Of a DNA stretch of 64,000 nucleotides, positions 4,201 through 59,531 are shown piece after piece (within the stretch, counting starts at the first letter, position 1; each line of letters starts with the position of its first letter). The stretch spans positions 480,001 to 544,000 of the forward strand of contig OY970176.1 in NCBI GenBank assembly GCA_963707955.1. Direction: 5' to 3'. The notes beneath the pieces are model-generated. The model ran no database searches, was not told where the DNA came from, and was given only the letters and a program-made list of their open reading frames with translations. The stretch comes from Candidatus Bathyarchaeota archaeon. GTDB taxonomy: Archaea > Thermoproteota > Bathyarchaeia > Bathyarchaeales > Bathycorpusculaceae. The position numbers and the translations under genes were made by a program.

Positions 4201-4580
4201 GCGCGCGCTACTGGCAAACATCTCAAAGACCTACAGGCGGTGACGCTGAAAGAGGTCCACAAGTTGATCCTTTAGTATCAAGCCGAGAAACCGTAAGAGC
4301 GCGCGTTAGAAAAGGCGATTAAGGATTTGCGAAGGCAGCAGACTAGTGTTCATTCTCTTTTTTTCTCTGAAACGTGGCGTGCGCAACTCTGTGTCTGAGA
4401 AACTGCTGGAGATTCGATTGACTCACGCGTGCAAACGGAACTTGTTCGTTTGCACACGAGGAACGTGAATCGACGTAAAAACGTGAACGCCAGATTATAT
4501 TGGACGCAACTGGGTTCATTTGTCGTCCACTCAAAAATCTTTGCGCAAGCGTTTTATCGTATACTAAAGTATTATGAACT

Positions 4581-7239
4581 GTGAGATGGAAATTGTTCAG
4601 GGATTTGCCTTCAGCAATCCTGCTGACGCTCCTGCTGACGCAGGGGATGATTTGGGCCTCTGCGGCTGGAACGTTCAATCTTCAGGGCCAAGGTCCTGTG
4701 TCCGTGCTGATGATTAACCCTCTATCTGGTGACGGCAATTTTGATTTTAGCTCTGCCGATTATCCTGTTAGCAGCAATTTCACAGTGGAGTTCTACATAA
4801 CAGAAGTCATGAACCTTTCCGCATGGCAGATCTACGTTTCATGGAATAACAGTATAATCCATTTTGGCGCGGCTTGGATACCGGAGCAGAACGTGTTCCA
4901 AGAAGCAATTAACAATGGGGCAACGCCGCTTGAGGCACAAGATCTTGAAATCAACAAGAGCTCCAACGTTGGATATTTTCTCTATGGTATGACCACGCTT
5001 TACATGCCGGACGTTTCCCACACGTACCCGGTGAACGTTACAGGTCAGGGATTGTTAGGCAGCATAAACTTCACAGTCGCCGTTGCTCCAGAAGAAGCCG
5101 AAGACCTAACGACGAACCTCGAAATGATAGAACAAACAACCGACGCCCCGCTTGGTTACTTCATGTCGTTCATACAGCTTTGCGAGGATGGAGCCGTCAC
5201 TTCGCCTATCGGAGTATCAGCTCAGCCAGCAGATATAACGATATATGGACCCGCCCCGACCATCCACATAAGAGACTGCAGGAAACGTTGACCCAGAGAC
5301 AGCGCCTATAACGCGCAACGGAGGTACTTACACCTTTACTGGAAACATCTCAAACATAATCACCGTGGAAAGAGATGACATCGTCCTTGACGGAGCGGGT
5401 CACACTCTTCAGGGCACAGGAAATGAAACAGGAATAAGCCTGACATCTAGAAGCAACGTTACTATCAATAACCTGCAAATCACGGGATTCAGCATTGGCA
5501 TACTTCTAAATTCTTCCAACACTGTCATAATTTCAGAAAACAACATAACAAACAACGATGGAGGAGTTAATCTTTTCAACTCTTCCGATAACAGTCTATC
5601 CTTGAACACTTTGTCAAACAACGAATATGGCGCTATGCTCGATTCCTCCTCATGTAATAACACCGTATGCGAGAACAACATAGCAAGAAACGGCCAGTGG
5701 GGCGTAGGCCTATGGTCCCAGTCCAACTGTAACAGCCTGCTTCAGAACACCATCGCAGACAACGGGTACGGCATCTGGCTGTGGAGCTCCTCCGACAATA
5801 ATACCATATCCGGAAACAGCATAACAGCAAACGGCGAAGGAGGCATCTGGCTGTGGATCTCGTCAAGCTACAACATCATCGTTGGAAACGACATAACAGC
5901 AAACAACTGGTACGGAATAGGCTTATGGTCCCAGTCCAACTGTAACAGCCTGCTTCAGAACACCATCGCAGACAACGCGTACGGCATAGAATTTTGGGAC
6001 CAGTCCTCAAGCAACGCGGTCTACCACAATAACTTTGTAGCAAACCAGAAACAGGTTCAGATTTTTAACTCCAGTAACCTGTTCGACAACGGGTATCCAT
6101 CAGGGGGAAACTACTGGAGCGATTATGTGGGCAACGACAGCCAGTATGGACCGGCACAAAACATTAGCGGTAGTGATGGAATAGGGGACACGCCACACCT
6201 GATGAGCGAAAGCAACGCTGATCATTATCCCTTAATGGCTGAATTCTTGGCCTTCAGCACTTCATCGGGATGCGACGTGGAAGCAATTTCCAACTCGACA
6301 ATACTGGATTTTCAGTATTTTAGCAGAAATAGCACCATCAGCATTCAAGTCTCAAACGCGACCAATGATCAAACTTACGGCTTTTGCAGACTTGGAATTC
6401 CGCGTTCAGTCCTGGTCCCACCTTACACAGTAACTGTCAGCGACAGCCCAGTGCAGTACGCCACCTTGTTGCAGAACGAGTCTTTCAGCCTAATTTACTT
6501 CACTTACCAACAGACGACACACGAGATCACAATACAAGGACAGGACATCACGCCGCCGACGATACTGATCTTACAACCCGAAAACAAGACGTACTCGGTG
6601 AACAGTACATCCTTAACCTTCACGGTTGACAAGCCGACTTCATGGATAGGCTACAGCTTCGACGGCCGAGCAAACGTGACCATCAACGGAAACGCCACTC
6701 TCGCGGACGTTAAAGATGGATTCCATGATATAATTCTCTACGCGAACAGCACAGCGGGCATCACGGGCTGGTCAAACATCACGTGGTTCGCAGTGGATAC
6801 GACCCCTCCAACAATCACTGACGTATACCAAGATCCACCTTCAAACGACGTGTCACCCAAAGACACCGTAAGGATCAACGTAACAGTCAACGACGGCGTA
6901 AGCGGCGTAAAGCAGGTCATTTTGAGCTACGCTACAAACAGCGGAACATGGGTTTCAGTCAACGCCACAAACCTGGGACAAAACATCTTCAACGCAGCCT
7001 TACCGCCATTCCCATCCGGCACGAATGTCACGTACATGGTGACAGCCATCGACAACGTCAACAACACAATCTCAACCCAGCAAATGGGTTACGAATATCA
7101 ATATCACGTAATCCCAGAACTTCCAACAATGCTGACTCTGTTCCTCCTCATGGCTTCAACCCTGTTTGCAACAATAGTCTACAAAAGAACAAGAATCAGA
7201 CAAATCAAAAAACACTGTCTCGTCCTCATCAGAGAGTGA
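4581..7239 (+). CDS. Cohesin-like + NosD/CASH right-handed beta-helix + Ig-like surface protein with PEF-like C-terminal anchor; +1 frameshift near 5274
   Basis: The two track ORFs (4581..5291, 5365..7239) join as TIHIR|TAGNVDPETAPITRNGGTYTFTGNI...VERDDIVLDG if one base near 5274 is removed. PbH1 repeats, GGNYWSDY...DGIGDTP, and VIPEL+TM+basic C-terminus. Confidence 0.8.
5711..5987 (+). repeat. In-frame internal direct repeat (about 64 bp, 213 bp apart) in the beta-helix coding region
   Basis: TATGGTCCCAGTCCAACTGTAACAGCCTGCTTCAGAACACCATCGCAGACAACG(G/C)GTACGGCAT starts at both 5711 and 5924. Confidence 0.9.
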
Positions 7240-7507
7240 AAAGGGCCTCGCTCAGTTGCCAACAGCGTAAAGATGCGCTTTGTCCATAAATGACTCTGAA
7301 AAGCGCGCGCCTCTACGTCTTTAACCGCAATTTGCCATCCGAGCCTTGGAACCGATTCATCTAACCGCCAACAGCACAAACCATTTTAGGAATCGAGGTC
7401 AGAACCGAAAATTCGGTCCACTTTTCTTCCAGCATCTTCAAAGCAAAATGAGAGTTGAGTAAAACCAAAAAAGTTTTTCATGCACTTCCAAGAGCGCTTC
7501 ACGTCAT

Positions 7508-7531
7508 AGCTTCAGGAACAAGCATGCGCGC
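7508..7531 (-). repeat. Copy of the dispersed GCGCGC-N6-GTTCCT intergenic element
   Basis: Minus strand reads GCGCGCATGCTTGTTCCTGAA; its first 18 nt are identical to the copy at 52698. Confidence 0.75.
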
Positions 7532-7588
7532 TCTGGTTTCCGCAAGGGTTATTTTAGAGTAAGGCATCTACAATTGTGAGAGAGAAAA

Positions 7589-8632: not shown

Positions 8633-8667
8633 GAGCGCATCCCCGTTCCTAAATTCTTCTTTCTAGC
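8633..8667 (+). repeat. Degenerate copy of the dispersed intergenic element
   Basis: GAGCGCATCCCCGTTCCTAAATTCTTCTTTCTAGC versus GCGCGCTAGCGGGTTCCCAAATTCCCTTTTTCTAGC (copy at 45305). Confidence 0.65.
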
Positions 8668-8878
8668 TGCATCAGGTTCGAACACATCCTCAAAATGGCC
8701 CTGCCATCTCCAGACGCGCCCTCACTTTGGTGAAAACTTTTATACATTCACTCAACATGGCTTCCCGTATCCTGCATTGGTAATCATCCAAAACACCGCA
8801 GAGCTGGAGCGCAAACCAAGCGGAAACGAATTTAAGAACAAGCCAATGAGCTACAAGACTGTGGGTAGCTAGTAACCG

Positions 8879-17115: not shown

Positions 17116-17153
17116 GGCGCACCCAAGTTCATTAAATTCCCTTTTCTAAGCGT
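17116..17153 (+). repeat. Degenerate copy of the dispersed intergenic element
   Basis: GGCGCACCCAAGTTCATTAAATTCCCTTTTCTAAGCGT. Confidence 0.6.
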
Positions 17154-17356
17154 GATAGAGCCAAGCTGAAAGAGCCAGGTTGAAAAGACAGGCCACCTTT
17201 GTTAAATCATTCTAAATGTTCAGCAACACTGTCTGCTGATTCTTTTCAAAGAGTCACGAACCATTTGAACAGCTCAAGTTTGCTCGAACATCTGAGTTCG
17301 ACATAAGCCCACAGCATTCGCATGCCATAAAATAGGCAACAAAAAAGTGTCAGCAC

Positions 17357-33948: not shown

Positions 33949-34060
33949 TCGCGCACGTCGAATTTTCGCTGTTTCTGCGTTCTCACACATTTATCATGAT
34001 GGCGGCTTAAAATTCCCCGTTTCGCGTTTTGCCTCGTCTAACACACCTACCCCCTCCCCC
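33949..34060 (+). repeat. Degenerate dispersed element copy plus GCCTCGTCTA/C-tract module
   Basis: TCGCGCAC directly after the egsA stop; TAAAATTCCCCGTTTCGCGTTTTGCCTCGTCTA...TACCCCCTCCCCC. Confidence 0.6.
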
Positions 34061-40434: not shown

Positions 40435-40483
40435 TTATTAAACCGTTTTTCAGAATTATACCATAATCCGCCCCTAATTTGAA
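40435..40483 (-). promoter_or_regulatory. Promoter with shared operator motif (copy 1), upstream of the ABC-htrA operon
   Basis: Plus strand TTATTAAAC-CGTTTTTCAGAATT; on the minus strand this reads AATTCT-GAAAAAC (BRE)-TTTAATAA (TATA). Confidence 0.7.
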
Positions 40484-41341: not shown

Positions 41342-41390
41342 TTATTAAGGCGTTTTTCAGAATTTTACCCAATTCCAGCCCTAATCTGAC
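41342..41390 (-). promoter_or_regulatory. Promoter with shared operator motif (copy 2), divergent from the wHTH gene
   Basis: TTATTAAGG-CGTTTTTCAGAATT-TTACCCAATTCCAGCCCTAATCTGA. Confidence 0.7.
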
Positions 41391-42267: not shown

Positions 42268-42579
42268 GAGTGCAATTCATAATATGATTCCATCGCTCTA
42301 GTGGAATCAAGGTAATCAAAGAATTGTTGCCTTTTCATCAAGAAATAGCAGATCCCCCGGAGAAATCGCTGTTGTCACAATGGTCTTGGAAGTTCTCACA
42401 AAATCAAAGCTCAATTTAATAACTCCCTCCTCCGGCTCTTAGTAAGCGCGGATCAAGATGTTTTTGATTTCACGCCACATTAGAGCAACGAATAGCGCGC
42501 GCTGCAAATATGATGAAGCCAGAATAATGGACTCTTATTCCAGCTGTAGAGAACTGATGCCACTTTCAAGGTTCACAAA

Positions 42580-43553: not shown

Positions 43554-43600
43554 TTATTTAACGTTTTTCAGAATTAAAGCCAATTCTATTTCTAGTCTAT
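43554..43600 (-). promoter_or_regulatory. Promoter with shared operator motif (copy 3), upstream of PAP2
   Basis: TTATTTAA-CGTTTTTCAGAATT-AAAGCCAATTC. Confidence 0.7.
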
Positions 43601-44172
43601 CCATCGCCGAGACGATTGATGCGTACGAAGTCCGCAAAAATCAACCCGTGAGTGCTTATTTGCATGGCGATGGTAACGCCAGAGACCCATGCGAGGACAT
43701 GAAGAAGTGGTCTTCAGAGATGAGGAGGCGACATTCTATTGTTATCGATCCAAATGGAGCAAGCTTTAAGGATGAAAGACTCGATATTTTTCTGATGGAA
43801 ACGGATATCCTGTGAGAGACTTGAGGGTTGATGACGCCGAGAGTCGCCATGCAAACGCATGATGTAACCAAGATATTCAAGTCGAAGGTCAGAAGTCTGG
43901 AGCATCGAAGTTCCATCTTTGAGCGCAGAACGCGCGTCTATTCAGATGGTTCTGCCTGAAATCTTAACATTAGCCCTCACGTGTGCCATATTGTAGCCGT
44001 TAGGTTATTTCATCTATTCATGGTGCCTAAGAACTGCCAGAAAGAATGGAACATTATCATGGTTCTAAGCCTTTTCTGCAGATCTGATCAATGCCGCCTT
44101 ATGGCATGGTGGCTTGCGCTTAGAGAAATCCGTGAAAATGACGCAAAAAAGTAGGAATTCGCATCTTGGAAA

Positions 44173-44272
44173 TGGTAGCCCGGGAGAGATTCGAACTCTC
44201 GTCGGCGGGTCCAAAGCCCGCTATGCTTGTCCACTACAATCGGCGGAAAGGTGTTCTTCCCTCCACCGGGCT
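44173..44272 (-). tRNA. tRNA-Gln(TTG) with 24-nt intron (44239-44262) at position 10/11; encoded CCA
   Basis: Spliced 76-nt sequence AGCCCGG TG GTGT AGTGGACAA GCAT A GCGGG CTTTGGA CCCGC CGAC GAGAG TTCGAAT CTCTC CCGGGCT ACCA folds as a cloverleaf. Confidence 0.92.
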
Positions 44273-44433
44273 TCTCCGGGCCACTCAGATAGACATTTTA
44301 CCCTCCTAATAAGTCTCCCATTAACTTTTTCGGAGGTTTTCTCAACTATAGCGGAGAAAATGGAAGACCCCAGCATGTCATGATCAAAAGATGAAACTGG
44401 CATCAACCCTTAGACCTGAACGGAAACTAATAT

Positions 44434-45305
44434 GCGCGCTAGCGGGTTCCTAAATTCGCTTTTTCAGGCGTGACGAGTTGGTTCATGTCCTACAGACGAT
44501 ACTTCGCGCTTTAATAGTCACACAGTCATCCACGGATCAACATAGCCCTATATAAAACGTGTTCGCGAATGAATTTGGGAACGAGGTCCTGTGAATGGCT
44601 TCCTACGCCGCGTTGCTGACGGCACTCATTTTTTAAAGGTTAAGCGTGCGAAAAATCCAAAATTGCATTAGAAGTGAATGATACCTAGACTGGTCATCGA
44701 GCGGGTTTGGGTCTGTATCTGTTTCTTTCGGAGAAGAAGTCGATCACTCTGGATTCTGTCAAGAACTTTGCATAGTGTTTTGCTTGGGCAGGAATGACGT
44801 ATTCATCGCCTTTCTCGCAGATTCTGGGCTTGCCTTCGATGATCAATTCCATTTTTCCTTCTATCATGATTCCCCATTGAGAATAGTCATGAGTGTGCTC
44901 TGGCACTTTTGCGGATGATTCCATTTCGAAGAAGACCAGCTGCTGCTTCTCCCCCTGCAGGATCCATGCTCTGACTCCTTTGAGTTGAATGTCTGCTTCT
45001 GGTAGACGCGTTATGACCTCAGGAAAACCTTGCCCACGTCTACCCTTAGCATCGTCCAAACGTTCCACCCGCAGGCTGAACAAACACAGGAAGAAGTATT
45101 AATGTTTGCGCTCCTGAGCGCCATCTAGATCGTGAGATTCTATCTTCTAAAATGCGTTGTCGCTACAGCGAGCGGTGCGCGCTTTTGCTTGCATTACCTG
45201 GTTCAAGGGTGATAGCGTGAACTATGACGGTGGCAACTTCATGTGGATCGCAAAACCTAACTCTAAGACGCTAGAAAAAGGGAATTTGGGAACCCGCTAG
45301 CGCGC
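44434..45305. mobile_element. Putative cassette/MITE-like unit: 38-bp terminal inverted repeats (34/38 identical) enclosing a cupin gene
   Basis: 44434-44471 GCGCGCTAGCGGGTTCCTAAATTCGCTTTTTCAGGCGT versus reverse complement of 45268-45305 GCGCGCTAGCGGGTTCCCAAATTCCCTTTTTCTAGCGT. No transposase in the window and no clear target-site duplication. Confidence 0.55.
44694..45083 (-). CDS. Cupin domain protein
   Basis: PEHTH...QWG...GDEYVIPAQAKH. Confidence 0.85.
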   Translation of the reverse strand: MFSLRVERLDDAKGRRGQGFPEVITRLPEADIQLKGVRAWILQGEKQQLVFFEMESSAKVPEHTHDYSQWGIMIEGKMELIIEGKPRICEKGDEYVIPAQAKHYAKFLTESRVIDFFSERNRYRPKPAR

Positions 45306-45481
45306 TAGATGCAATAACACTAAAGGTATTGATAGAAGTTCCATTCATTTTTTTGAATCAATAGCTTCTGTAGAGATTCGAGATCTGTGGACAGAATATT
45401 CTTGAGAGGACCACAAAGCTTATATATTAAAACATGTCACGTGGATAGCTACGCGGAACCGAACGTTCTGTTTTCTGAACA

Positions 45482-46471
45482 ATGATGAAGAATCACGACG
45501 GTTCTACGGAAAAATGTTCGAGGCGAAATGGATTGAGTAAGAAAGAAGGCGCAATTCGCCAACGCCTAATCGACAAGTGCCCGGAATGTGGTAGCTCAAA
45601 CCTTGTCCATGATTATGACACTGGTGAAACAGTTTGTGGTGATTGTGGACTCGTTTTGTACGAGCAGATGATGGACAAGGGACCAGAATGGCGTGCCTTC
45701 ACTCAGGAAGAGAAGGCATCTAGAAGCCGCGTTGGAGTGCCAACGTCCTATTCTGTTCATGATAAGGGCTTGTCAACGGCCATAAGCCAGGTTGACCGAG
45801 ACGCCTTTGGGAGAAAACTTCCGCTTTCAACGCGCCTGCAGATGTGGCGTCTCAGAAAATGGCAGATAAGGTCAAGAGTACACTCCTCGATCGATAGAAA
45901 CTTGGCCCAAGCAATGGCAGAACTTGACCGACTGTCAGACAAGGTGTACATTCCGCCGCCGACAAAGGAGAAGGCAGCGGTAACCTACCGTAAGGCCCTC
46001 GATAAAGGCTTGGTCCGTGGCAGGTCAATCGCAGCCATCGCTGCAGCCGCGCTCTACGCGGCGTGCCGTGGAAGCGGAACACCAAGAACCCTCCGTGAAA
46101 TCGCGGAGGCGAGCCTAGTCGACAAGAAAGACGTTGCGCGATGTTACCGGTTGCTGCTGCGCGAGCTTGAAGTGCACATGCCAATCGCGGATCCCCTTAC
46201 GTACGTTTCAAAGATAGCTGAGAGAACCGGAATAAGCGGCAAGACCCAGGGAATCGCCATACAGATCCTGCGGGAAGCCAGGAAGAGAAGAGCTGCTGCG
46301 GGAAAAGACCCCATGGGGTTAGCAGCTGCGTCACTGTACATTGCATGCTTGAAAAACAACGAAAAGAAGACACAGAAAGACATAGCTGAGGCGGCAGGCG
46401 TCACCGAAGTCACGGTTAGAAACCGTTACAAAAGCCTGAAGAAACAGCTAAACTTAGAGGTACCAGACTAA
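45482..46471 (+). CDS. tfb: Transcription initiation factor IIB
   Basis: CPECGS zinc ribbon, GPEWRAF, cyclin repeats, VTEVTVRNRY; probable start TTG 45533. Confidence 0.97.
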   Translation: MMKNHDGSTEKCSRRNGLSKKEGAIRQRLIDKCPECGSSNLVHDYDTGETVCGDCGLVLYEQMMDKGPEWRAFTQEEKASRSRVGVPTSYSVHDKGLSTAISQVDRDAFGRKLPLSTRLQMWRLRKWQIRSRVHSSIDRNLAQAMAELDRLSDKVYIPPPTKEKAAVTYRKALDKGLVRGRSIAAIAAAALYAACRGSGTPRTLREIAEASLVDKKDVARCYRLLLRELEVHMPIADPLTYVSKIAERTGISGKTQGIAIQILREARKRRAAAGKDPMGLAAASLYIACLKNNEKKTQKDIAEAAGVTEVTVRNRYKSLKKQLNLEVPD

Positions 46472-52427: not shown

Positions 52428-52697
52428 GAACCGTGAAGCAGGCAACTTGAAAAAAAGAAGCCCCGCTTTTTGTTTCTTGTGGACTAGCCTACCATTAGTC
52501 AAGCTTCATTCAGCCGCAACGACAGGGCACTATTATCGGTAATCCCCAGACGCGTCCCATCACAATAACTCCAGTGTTTTCGATTGAAAAGACAATGGTT
52601 CCGATTGTTTTCGCAATGCCTGTCTGCTTAGTCTTCGGCCCTTGCCTCCAAGGAAGACTTCCAAGCTGAACGCTGCTGAAGCGGTGCGTTATGAATA

Positions 52698-52906
52698 GCG
52701 CGCATGCTTGTTCCTAAATTCCCAGATTCAGCTCAGGAGGAAGGCATGACGTTTTCAGATGTCTATGGTTGCCGTCACGGTTCAGCTGAGTGCTTTCGTG
52801 CTCACACCCTTCCCCCCGGGTATCCTATATGATCCAAATATGATTCAAGAGCAAAATGAGTAGCACAAGCCACTTCCCAAAAGAACGCAGGAACATGCTA
52901 GCGCGC
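52698..52906. repeat. Inverted pair of dispersed element copies enclosing a non-coding spacer (209-bp MITE-like unit)
   Basis: 52698 GCGCGCATGCTTGTTCCTAAATTCCC; minus strand from 52906 GCGCGCTAGCATGTTCCTGCGTTC; internal CACACCCTTCCCCCC at about 52804. Confidence 0.7.
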
Positions 52907-53041
52907 GAAGTTAGCAAAATTTATATGGCTGAAGGACTTTTCTGCATCTAACCGGCCTTAACCGAGGCTCAAGTGTCAGAGTTTGGCACGATGGGTTTTT
53001 GCGGACGGAGGCTGGTTCCGCGAATAGGACGAAAAACGAAG

Positions 53042-53974: not shown

Positions 53975-54316
53975 GCCAGCTGAGAAAAGAACAAAATGAT
54001 TCCTTCCACACTCATAGAATCATCCGCCAAGATCAACCATTCCGAAGCCATGCCACATAAAACAGATAGGTTCTTGCCCATCAAAAACCGCTGCTTAGAG
54101 TACAGCCTTGAAACAACGTCAGCGCATGTCCTGTAACGTATAAGATTCAAGCATGTCAGTGGCGTTTTCAGCATCATCACTGTCGAGAATGCAACTGTCT
54201 TGTCGATAGAAGTGTGAGGAAGAACTTTGGTTATTAGACAATGTTTCTATGCGCCCGGCATGATGAAGGGGGGGTATGGGTCCTACGACTGGCTTTTAGC
54301 GCGCGCCTGGACGCAA

Positions 54317-55097: not shown

Positions 55098-55409
55098 GTC
55101 ATCCTTGAGTTTCATTCTTCTCGCCTACGTCACTCTATTCAACATCTTGGGAATTAAACTTTCCCAAATTAGTGCATAAACAGGGGAACCGGCGCGCGCT
55201 GGTTCTGGGTATTGCCGAGCCCTATGTAAGCACCAAATATGAGGTTGTGTTTTTGTGTCGCCGGTATTACTGTACACGGTGAATTCCGTCGGATCTATTC
55301 CATTCCACTTAGGGACTATTACAGAAATCCATTCAAGAAGTTTAGCGCGCACGGGGTAAACTTTACCCCCAAACCCAAACAGTGACTACGACGGTGACGA
55401 CGACTAATA

Positions 55410-55425
55410 TTTAGCGCGCGCTAAA
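55410..55425. promoter_or_regulatory. Perfect 16-bp palindrome TTTAGCGCGCGCTAAA abutting the BRE/TATA of the ferritin-like gene
   Basis: Read directly; followed by AAATCTTATATC. Confidence 0.6.
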
Positions 55426-56458: not shown

Positions 56459-56767
56459 AACTAATAATTCTTTTTTTATATCGAAAATTTTAGGCGCGCG
56501 CGTGCTACAGTTTCGACACTAGATTTTTAAGTCTCAGTAATTACGGTTATTCATGTTAGAAGGCATTAAATTGCCGAAAGAAAAGCGGAAATCATATTAA
56601 ACTTTCTTGTGGACCGCCTGTTATCGCAAGTTCAACTCCTTTTGCAGTGAACAAGTATGTTAAACAGACGGTAACTTCGTCTCAGCACGCGCTGACGATG
56701 ACAGTGAATCAAACAGCAGAGCTTATATGAAGTCATCCGAATAGTGAACATCAAGGTGAAAGGCCAA

Positions 56768-58974: not shown

Positions 58975-59531
58975 CTTGTCCGCCCAGAGCAGAGACTTAG
59001 AAGACTCGTTTGGCAACGATCCCCATTCTGACTTCGATGACGAGAGAGGCGCGCACTAGGTTTGCAGCACACGCGTAGTCAAGAGTGTAAATCTCTTCAA
59101 TTGAAAGAATATACAGGTACCTTATGTTTTCAAGGTCCTAGTTTTCTTCTTTTTGCAGCACAAACCCGTCTTTTTCAACGTTGTCAATTGAAAAAAGCAA
59201 AAAATACTTCAAACGGGCAAGTATCAATCGATGAGTGTGGTGGATGGTCTTTCTCCCTTCTCCTTTCATTCTACCATCCTCCTCATGAAACATGTTCTAT
59301 GCATACTAAGTCCCAAAGCATCTCCGAAAATGGAAAAGGGCAAGAAATGGATTCCAAGCAGTTCTACGGGTTCTAGCGCGTGCTTGCTTGTTAATGCTCG
59401 CGTTGGGCTCATTATGGATTTTCGAATCAAGACGAAGACTGAGAGTTGATGTTTTTGTCGCTTGTGGGTTGATGCTTCAGCTCTTGCCGTGGTTGAGCGC
59501 GTTCTGATCTGGTTCATGAGTTCAGCGGTGC

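Follow-up and report, generated by a model that had tools for sequence, protein, structure and literature searches.

Dispersed inverted repeats in a Bathyarchaeota genome as the probable ends of an IS5-like insertion sequence and its miniature elements

What are the short GC-tipped repeats that recur between the genes of an uncultured archaeon, and does the pair that brackets a cupin gene mark a system for the capture of genes? The question is raised by a stretch of 64,000 nucleotides from a Candidatus Bathyarchaeota archaeon (hereafter the window, G000:C1:480001-544000), whose genome is a single contig of 2,346,764 bases (G+C content 47.9%). A sequence-only reading of the window had described a dispersed repeat family forming inverted pairs, and had proposed that its members are either the ends of a non-autonomous mobile element or recombination sites that capture single accessory genes. 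[quoted passage not shown] The window contains one MITE-A, two inverted copies of MITE-B around the cupin gene, one solo end, and decayed remnants.

Terminal repeats and the elements that they bound

The TIR consensus is (T)A-GCGCGC-WWGCNT-GTTCC-TAAATTC, about 25-30 bp in length. The pattern GCGCGC-N6-GTTCC occurs 50 times in the genome, and an ungapped position matrix was derived from these matches (matrix consensus TTAGCGCGC-ATGCGT-GTTCC-TAAATTC). The "T-rich-GCGT" segment that had earlier been placed in the family consensus belongs to one end of MITE-B only. With a site threshold of at least 14 bits, the matrix identifies 108 TIR sites in the genome and 1 in a control made by reversing the genome without complementing it; at 16 bits or more the counts are 104 and 0. 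Eighty-seven of the 108 sites are outside crude longest-open reading frame (ORF) gene calls, which cover 82.5% of the genome, where 19 would be expected (binomial p=3e-46). When adjacent sites within 1300 bp were paired, 35 pairs faced inward, 2 faced outward, and 2 were on the same strand, with 38 sites unpaired; across the whole genome, the intergenic location and the inward orientation claimed for the window exceed chance. The inward pairs enclose 32 non-coding MITEs (134-324 bp), two transposase elements (1080 and 1119 bp), and one other gene, the cupin gene (872 bp). The rarer TIR subfamilies have GTCCC or GTTGC cores, and in G003, G006, and G029 these bound elements of 1.0-1.1 kb.

The sequence-only reading suggested a search for a transposase gene flanked by the same ends, having seen no transposase or integrase in the window; none is present among the 57 ORFs there, but such a gene exists elsewhere in this genome, in frameshifted form, and in G003 and G009. 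In this genome, the 1080-bp TIR-bounded element (389080-390159) shows matches to DUF772 and DDE_Tnp_1 in its two ORFs (194 and 127 aa), and three-frame translation locates a frameshift within the catalytic domain. The second element, of 1119 bp (1671432-1672550, TIR core GTTGC), has a transposase with 42-54% identity that is likewise split. Since both copies are frameshifted, the family is probably frozen in this genome. An intact copy of 1093 bp is found in G003 (contig C204), with TIRs at L102 positions 1036 and 2128 and the 328-aa ORF at 1121-2107, and an intact 328-aa ORF is found behind the same TIR at a contig end in G009 (C18). The intact transposase matches the Pfam domains DDE_Tnp_1 (PF01609; 73.6 bits, where the cut-off is 23; residues 121-304 aligned to model positions 5-198 of 200) and DUF772 (41.5 bits). 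Of 2911 candidates from a protein database, 706 are relatives at E<=0.001; the best 120 of the 706 are 82-100% identical and nearly all 328 aa long, and some relatives are called "IS5 family transposase" or "transposase [Candidatus Bathyarchaeota archaeon]" by their sources.

The element therefore resembles the IS5 family in its domains, its single ORF, its length of about 1.09 kb, its TIRs of about 25-30 bp, and the names of its relatives; the form expected of an IS5-type element is a single transposase ORF between TIRs, at a total length of about 1-1.5 kb. A match of the ends to a catalogued IS family was among the outcomes that the earlier reading had listed against its own proposal, and in kind this is what was found, the ends being IS5-like. 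The smaller elements have the features by which MITEs are recognized: they are small, non-coding, multicopy, and bounded by TIRs, their ends are common with those of an autonomous element, and their insertions are polymorphic. From the established behavior of DDE transposases and MITEs, the transposase would bind both TIRs and move whatever lies between them, and the MITEs, which retain the TIRs but not the gene, would be mobilized in trans. The proposal that the repeats are ends of a non-autonomous, MITE-like element is accordingly upheld by the TIRs held in common with a transposase-bearing IS of the same genome.

MITE-B is about 135-167 bp long and, with an nhmmer profile of 167 positions built from four copies of this genome and six of G001, is found at 7 loci in this genome at E<=1e-10 besides the IS end; both copies beside the cupin gene are included. 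At either end, the similarity of MITE-B to the 1080-bp IS extends past the TIR (E=2.2e-5 and 5e-10), so MITE-B looks like an internal-deletion derivative of the IS. MITE-A is about 206 bp long and occupies 24 loci at E<=1e-30 with a profile made from full-length units of about 205 bp. Nine such units can be aligned end to end; indels shift the only short frame, and the ATG is gone in two copies. Matches to MITE-A at E<=0.001 were found in 8 of 41 genomes, this one included: they are full-length in G001 and G007, partial in G010, and of TIR length in the others.

The full-length MITE-A of the window lies at 52696-52907 (+) (nhmmer E=5.9e-62, model positions 1-206). It is bounded by TIRs at 52698(+) (43.0 bits) and 52906(-) (32.0 bits), the unit is 209-212 bp long, and indels break any frame, in agreement with the earlier statement that this pair brackets a non-coding spacer. 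Depth over this copy is 7-9 times the depth of its flanks in runs from the same study. The window copy belongs to a MITE-A sub-family with an 8-nt duplication adjoining the TIR (TAAATTCC + TAGATTCC; alignment columns 21-28). By eye, a TATA-like sequence, GCAAAATTTATATGG (in window 52908-52972), is located about 10 nt downstream of the inserted MITE-A and before a TRAM-domain gene at 52973; the empty alleles in G001 and G007 have this sequence unbroken.

Insertion polymorphism and alternating-GC tracts

The window MITE-A is absent from the sister species G001 and G007, in which the flanks are contiguous and form clean empty sites (empty, ...TTATGAA(C/T)AGTT(A/C)GCAAAA...; filled, ...TTATGAATA[GCGCGC...GCGCGC]GAAGTTAGCAAAA...); this insertion is specific to G000, the genome of the window. 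For a 162-bp MITE of G001, both G000 and G007 show clean empty sites. The MITE-B copies of G001 share 95-97% identity with the one at G000 922415, as against 86-91% in the flanks, and some copies are orthologous between species (G000 1699343 with G001; G000 256991 with G007). Many synteny blocks terminate exactly at the end of a MITE, and at G000 597763 there is a MITE-A where G007 carries a gene-bearing segment of 2.25 kb. For the other G000 copies no TIR-to-TIR empty sites were found; larger indels, replacements, or synteny breaks are seen instead. The number of TIRs also differs greatly among genomes: with at most one mismatch, the TIR pattern occurs 70 times in G000, 107 in G001, 42 in G003, 34 in G007, and 0 in G004 and G005 (controls 0-1). 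The range among 11 congeners is 0-107, and there are 11 occurrences in G032, which belongs to another family.

Several observations weigh against the reading of these repeats as ends of an IS5-like element and its MITEs. The transposase is below every NCBIfam cut-off for IS5 and IS1182, scoring 99.1 bits on the IS5 model NF033581 (IS5_4; cut-off 140) and 140.4 bits on the IS1182 model NF033551 (cut-off 270). No further transposase copies, and no intact one of this kind, were found in G000 with this query, so present-day activity is not seen. MITE-A shares only the TIR with the IS, and no parent element was found for it. The target duplication expected of such an element is inconsistent across copies: no direct repeat flanks the window MITE-A, where empty GAATAGTTAGC becomes GAATA[element]GAAGTTAGC, and in 66 pairs inspected by eye TA is common on each side, but the sides are uncorrelated and nothing extends beyond TA. 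The gene calls on which the intergenic test depends are, as stated, crude.

The outer part of the TIR also occurs by itself. GCGCGC is present 1453 times in G000, with 72% of occurrences within the 17.5% of the genome called intergenic, as compared with 11-16% for other GC-rich palindromic hexamers. There are 989 alternating-GC tracts of at least 6 nt, of which 669 are intergenic (about 4-fold enriched), and A at -1 (59%) is the only signal in their flanks. Without the tracts at TIR sites, 610 of the 669 are left, with a modal length of 8 nt (226/610). The 8-nt solo tracts have A at -1 in 69% and T at -2 in 38%; the corresponding values for the outer flanks of TIRs are 61% and 50%. A tract follows the stop codon within 200 nt in 292 of 1701 longer genes, and within 0-4 nt in 38. 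The window has 31 GCGCGC matches where 13.9 are expected, and its solo A(GC)3-5T tracts include those at 4201-4208, 7303-7310, 42495-42502, 54299-54306, 55192-55199, 55414-55421, and 56494-56501. At one of these, the GCGCGCGC tract at 42495-42502, alignment with G001 shows that the latter has a MITE-A and about 490 bp at this site. The palindrome AGCGCGCGCT occurs 114 times in G000 (control 3), 7-92 times in all 10 congeners, and 0-9 times in 30 genomes from other genera; the solo A(GC)nT tracts are genus-specific. In two genomes one occurs without the other: G004 contains 39 AGCGCGCGCT but no TIR, and G032 contains 11 TIRs but no AGCGCGCGCT.

Tracts are also found where the genomes differ by insertion or deletion. 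Collinear indels with a short side of at most 30 bp and a long side of at least 100 bp were surveyed in 772 kb of G001 and 790 kb of G007 against G000, and a (GC)3+ tract is at the junction of the short allele in 25 of 71. The same was true of 1 of 426 windows 150-350 nt away and 753 of 20000 random intergenic windows (3.8%). Among indels whose long allele ends in a TIR, 8 of 12 carry a tract in the short allele; among the others, 17 of 59 do. The cleanest allele pair is G000 ...TAGCGCGCGCTA... versus G001 ...TA-GCGCGC-[162-bp MITE body]-GCGCGC-TA..., a net gain of the MITE body and 4 bases. G007 has a decayed tract of the same length at this site, so the tract there, an A(GC)4T, is older than the insertion of the 162-bp MITE. 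Duplications of 4 bp at palindromic targets are typical of the IS5 group, and the 4 tract bases gained by this pair are as expected from such a duplication. We know of no IS5 member with a GCGCGC-tipped TIR or a link to (GC)n tracts. Parsimony across the three genomes gave 24 rows with known states, some events being represented twice: the tract is in the empty allele in 5 of 11 insertion rows and in the derived short allele in 3 of 13 deletion rows. Among small (5-14 nt) intergenic indels, 6 of 65 are pure alternating GC, including exact 8-nt gains and losses of GCGCGCGC in both directions. One of the sites is in the window at 59488 (G000 539488), where the intergenic DNA of the two genomes aligns except for an insertion of exactly 8 nt, GCGCGCGC, in G001.

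Three simple explanations of the tracts were considered. That GCGCGC is only a target duplication is rejected as a general rule, as a GC tract is missing from the clean empty site at which the window MITE-A inserted. That solo tracts are only excision scars is weakened by the discordant counts in G004 and G032 and by the polarized events in which the tract precedes the insertion. That (GC)n is a conserved functional motif is unsupported; tracts in aligned blocks are kept in 16 of 22 cases in G001 and 17 of 32 in G007, and in a rough comparison with differing criteria, random intergenic 8-mers are identical in 828 of 1731 (G001) and 770 of 1792 (G007). Neither a target with 4-bp duplication nor an excision scar explains all of the tract data. 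Statistically, the link of the GCGCGC tips with the A(GC)nT tracts found throughout the genus and with the indel junctions is solid. It is conceivable, although doubtful, that the solo tracts are docking sites, excision scars, or both, of an IS/MITE superfamily that by way of Z-DNA-prone tracts drives a large share of the gene-sized indels between species. This would amount to a cassette-like flux close to what the sequence-only reading suspected, with a transposase as its basis, and is put forward only tentatively. A literature search found no paper on GCGCGCGC in archaeal intergenic DNA.

The cupin gene between two MITE-B copies

The claim that the repeats at 44434 and 45305 form an inverted pair around exactly one cupin gene is borne out. 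The two arms, which occupy 44434-44471 and 45268-45305, each measure 38 nt; they are 89% complementary (34/38) and 796 nt apart, and the sole ORF between them is the 129-aa accessory cupin gene at 44694-45083 (-) (Pfam Cupin_2, E=3.4e-11). Each arm is the outer end of a MITE-B. The left copy occupies 44434-44595 (+) (nhmmer 44434-44582, model positions 3-154 of 167, E=2.9e-22), with an outer TIR at 44434-44471 of 36.4 bits and an inner end decayed to -2.8 bits (core near 44572-44594). The partial core that had been noticed at 44572 is real, and is this decayed inner end. The right copy, inverted relative to the left, occupies 45177-45306 (-) (nhmmer 45306-45184 (-), model positions 2-127, E=1.2e-10); its outer TIR at 45268-45305 scores 37.6 bits and its inner end (GCGCGC at 45177) has decayed to -7.4 bits. 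By these two profile matches, an inverted pair of MITE-B copies surrounds the cupin gene. The unit is situated between a tRNA gene (Rfam RF00005, 44184-44240(-), 32.2 bits) and a TFIIB (tfb) gene at 45482-46471(+).

The cupin gene is single-copy in G000, and homologues were found in 4 of 30 other genera of the family and in 3 of 5 further congeners (G003, G004, and G008), each at a different locus. TIR bracketing was found at none of 7 cupin homologue loci in other genomes, one of which (G043) has a single TIR about 450 bp away. G001 and G007 have the whole cupin unit at the orthologous site, with partly decayed TIRs, in regions 92% and 91% identical. The sequence-only reading recommended looking for an empty site between tRNA-Gln and tfb; the region between tRNA-Gln and tfb is 85 bp in G003 and 145 bp in G004 and in both the cupin gene is absent, but these spacers are too diverged to fix the boundaries exactly. 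About 120 further bases differ, and the difference does not run from TIR to TIR. A short dispersed repeat (38-50 nt, 90-97% identical) adjoins the cupin homologues of G003 and G004 (L098:1-38 and L100:420-468), and occurs in five or six places in G000, including 94557-94594, 1163999-1164042, 1277145-1277196, 1374377-1374425, and 1882663-1882722.

Logan contigs from four metagenome runs, aligned at 88% likeness or more, provide further alleles; of X5, a peat metagenome, only the joints were used, and its low or missing coverage of the MITE regions was ignored as evidence. In X5, contig joints from 44339 to 44693 (side of 47 letters) and from 44436 to 44677 (26 other letters between, side of 65) skip the left MITE-B and keep the cupin gene, and joints from 45150 to 45314, 45190 to 45353 (side of 63), and 45255 to 45358 skip the right MITE-B and keep the cupin gene. 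A contig of 1611 nt in X6 spans the entire unit. Most likely, the gene in the supposed cassette is a resident accessory gene beside which one MITE-B was acquired on either side, and is not a product of gene capture. Since X5 contigs skip either MITE-B and yet keep the cupin gene, two separate MITE-B insertions are rated above a composite transposon. It tells against this use of the X5 joints that they were accepted at 88% likeness or more with sides of 39-65 letters, and that those below 95% may stem from other organisms or repeats.

The composite alternative, in which the outer TIRs of MITE-B/cupin/MITE-B (44434-45305) were used together and carried the cupin gene into the spacer between tRNA-Gln and tfb, is unlikely but has several points in its favor. 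The same MITE occurs twice in inverted orientation with intact outer TIRs and decayed inner ends, which is the pattern of a composite transposon, and the genome has just 7 MITE-B-like copies, two of them 740 bp apart. The whole unit is absent from the site in G003 and G004 and present in G001 and G007, and the cupin homologues of G003, G004, and G008 are at other, mutually different loci. MITE-flanked cargo is also known in bacteria: according to PMC10969869, class 1 integrons of Acinetobacter are flanked by identical MITEs. As there, a gene lies here between two copies of one MITE with the outer ends intact, but joint movement is hypothetical here, contigs of a related population lack one MITE or the other, and the cargo is a cupin gene. 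Against a composite transposon stand the lack of a second copy of the unit, with the cupin gene being single-copy in G000, the absence of bracketing at all 7 homologue loci, the G003/G004 difference with its unalignable spacers, and the X5 contigs from which either MITE-B is missing and the cupin gene is not. The cupin pair is, moreover, the sole one of 35 with non-transposase content.

The same count bears on the proposal that the repeats are site-specific recombination sites, similar to attC or pdif, of a single-gene cassette system. One gene is indeed bracketed exactly, and at gene-sized indels the short-allele junction is often marked by a (GC)n tract, which corresponds to the outermost stretch of the repeat (the 25 of 71 above); but the same ends bound a DDE transposase, 32 of 35 pairs enclose non-coding DNA of 134-324 bp, and there are no cassette arrays. 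No recombinase is encoded among the window ORFs, and all 9 tyrosine-recombinase (PF00589) matches of the genome are outside the window. Because only the cupin pair holds another gene, because of the X5 joints, and because the recombinases lie outside the window, a cassette system is unsupported, and this part of the sequence-only reading is considered very improbable. It is equally improbable that the units of about 206 bp are structured small RNA genes or regulatory modules of the host (for instance, promoter or terminator cassettes) and are not mobile. They are intergenic and near gene ends, and the window copy is close upstream of the TATA-like box of the next gene, but their TIRs are common with a transposase-bearing element and species differ in whether a copy occupies an orthologous site. 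When 24 MITE-A copies taken from three genomes were analyzed with RNAalifold, compensatory change was seen in 0 of 40 predicted pairs (covariation term -0.36 kcal/mol), and an Rfam search gave no match for these units; with no covariation, nothing points to a structured RNA. Repetitive extragenic palindromic (REP) units or bacterial interspersed mosaic elements (BIMEs), handled by a REP-associated tyrosine (Y1) transposase (RAYT), would also be a short, GC-rich, intergenic, dispersed family. This is the most improbable explanation, as the arms are 134-324 bp apart and do not form a short hairpin, and the enzyme between them is a DDE and not a Y1 transposase, although no search aimed at a RAYT gene was made.

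Remaining features, known systems, and significance

The other repeat copies reported for the window are of mixed quality. The copy at 7531(-) is a solo TIR without a partner (7510-7532 (-), 28.2 bits) with a 22-nt, 95% match to 52697-52718, as the sequence-only reading had found in substance, but the facing partner that it had placed at 7303 is a solo (GC)4 tract (-14.3 bits). The degenerate copy at 8633 is real and has a partner that had been overlooked: together they form a decayed TIR-bounded element of 219 bp (8633-8851 (+)) with ends of 24.8 bits at 8633(+) and 14.7 bits at 8851(-), and with a weak match to the MITE-B profile inside it (8751-8843, E=0.0086). The copy at 17116 fails on the ungapped matrix (-5.5 bits); because it has a 27-nt, 81% match to the subterminal region of MITE-B (45261-45287), it is probably a decayed MITE-B end fragment with an indel (17116-17160 (+)). 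The degenerate copies proposed at 33949-34030 (-8.5 bits) and 55186-55205 (-4.8 bits) were not confirmed as TIR copies.

Inspected by eye, the tRNA gene beside the cupin unit (window 44175-44274 (-)) has CTTTGGA (UUG, Gln) as its anticodon loop, and its 5' acceptor strand is immediately followed by 26 additional nt. ARAGORN, with introns allowed, found no tRNA in the window nor in 44150-44310, and Rfam alone gave a partial tRNA match. The 26 nt are lacking in the tRNA-Gln of G004, which suggests that they may be a non-canonical intron.

A motif of 37-48 nt (CGTTTTTCAGAATT...CCTAAT.T) is present in three direct copies, 78-81% identical, at window 40435-40482, 41342-41389, and 43562-43598. The copies are intergenic and near an ArsR-type regulator gene and a PAP2 gene, and the motif may be an operator or promoter element. 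The tandem and dispersed repeats at window 5629-5989 are inside a NosD/beta-helix gene (5365-7236) and represent ordinary repeat-protein structure. Elsewhere in G000 there is another insertion sequence, of 1511 bp (G000:C1:2007252-2008764), with the TIR GGTACTGTTAAGTT and a target duplication of 9 bp, which neither G001 nor G007 has.

Archaeal and bacterial MITEs are among the closest of the systems already described. PMC10969869 lists archaeal MITEs for Sulfolobus, Halobacterium, Haloquadratum, and others, and gives a MITE size of 50-500 bp. The elements here are like those in being non-coding, multicopy, TIR-bounded, intergenic, polymorphic, and 134-324 bp long, with ends common with an IS; they differ in host lineage and in having no clear target duplication. 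The sequence-only reading knew of no description of such a system for Bathyarchaeia, and the literature search agrees: no paper was found on miniature inverted elements or the IS5 family in Bathyarchaea, although supplementary survey tables (e.g., PMC11602168) were not seen and may already list the family.

Annotators can now label about 100 intergenic repeats of this genome, with others in congeners, as IS or MITE ends, and not as unknown regulatory or cassette sites. The cupin "cassette" should not be taken as evidence of an integron-like system in archaea. For the evolution of bathyarchaeial genomes, the IS/MITE family marks breakpoints of rearrangements and indels between species. If the link to A(GC)nT tracts is true, then it would exemplify a DDE element whose target or scar is alternating GC, and would provide a concrete, testable mechanism for the turnover of accessory genes in an uncultured lineage.

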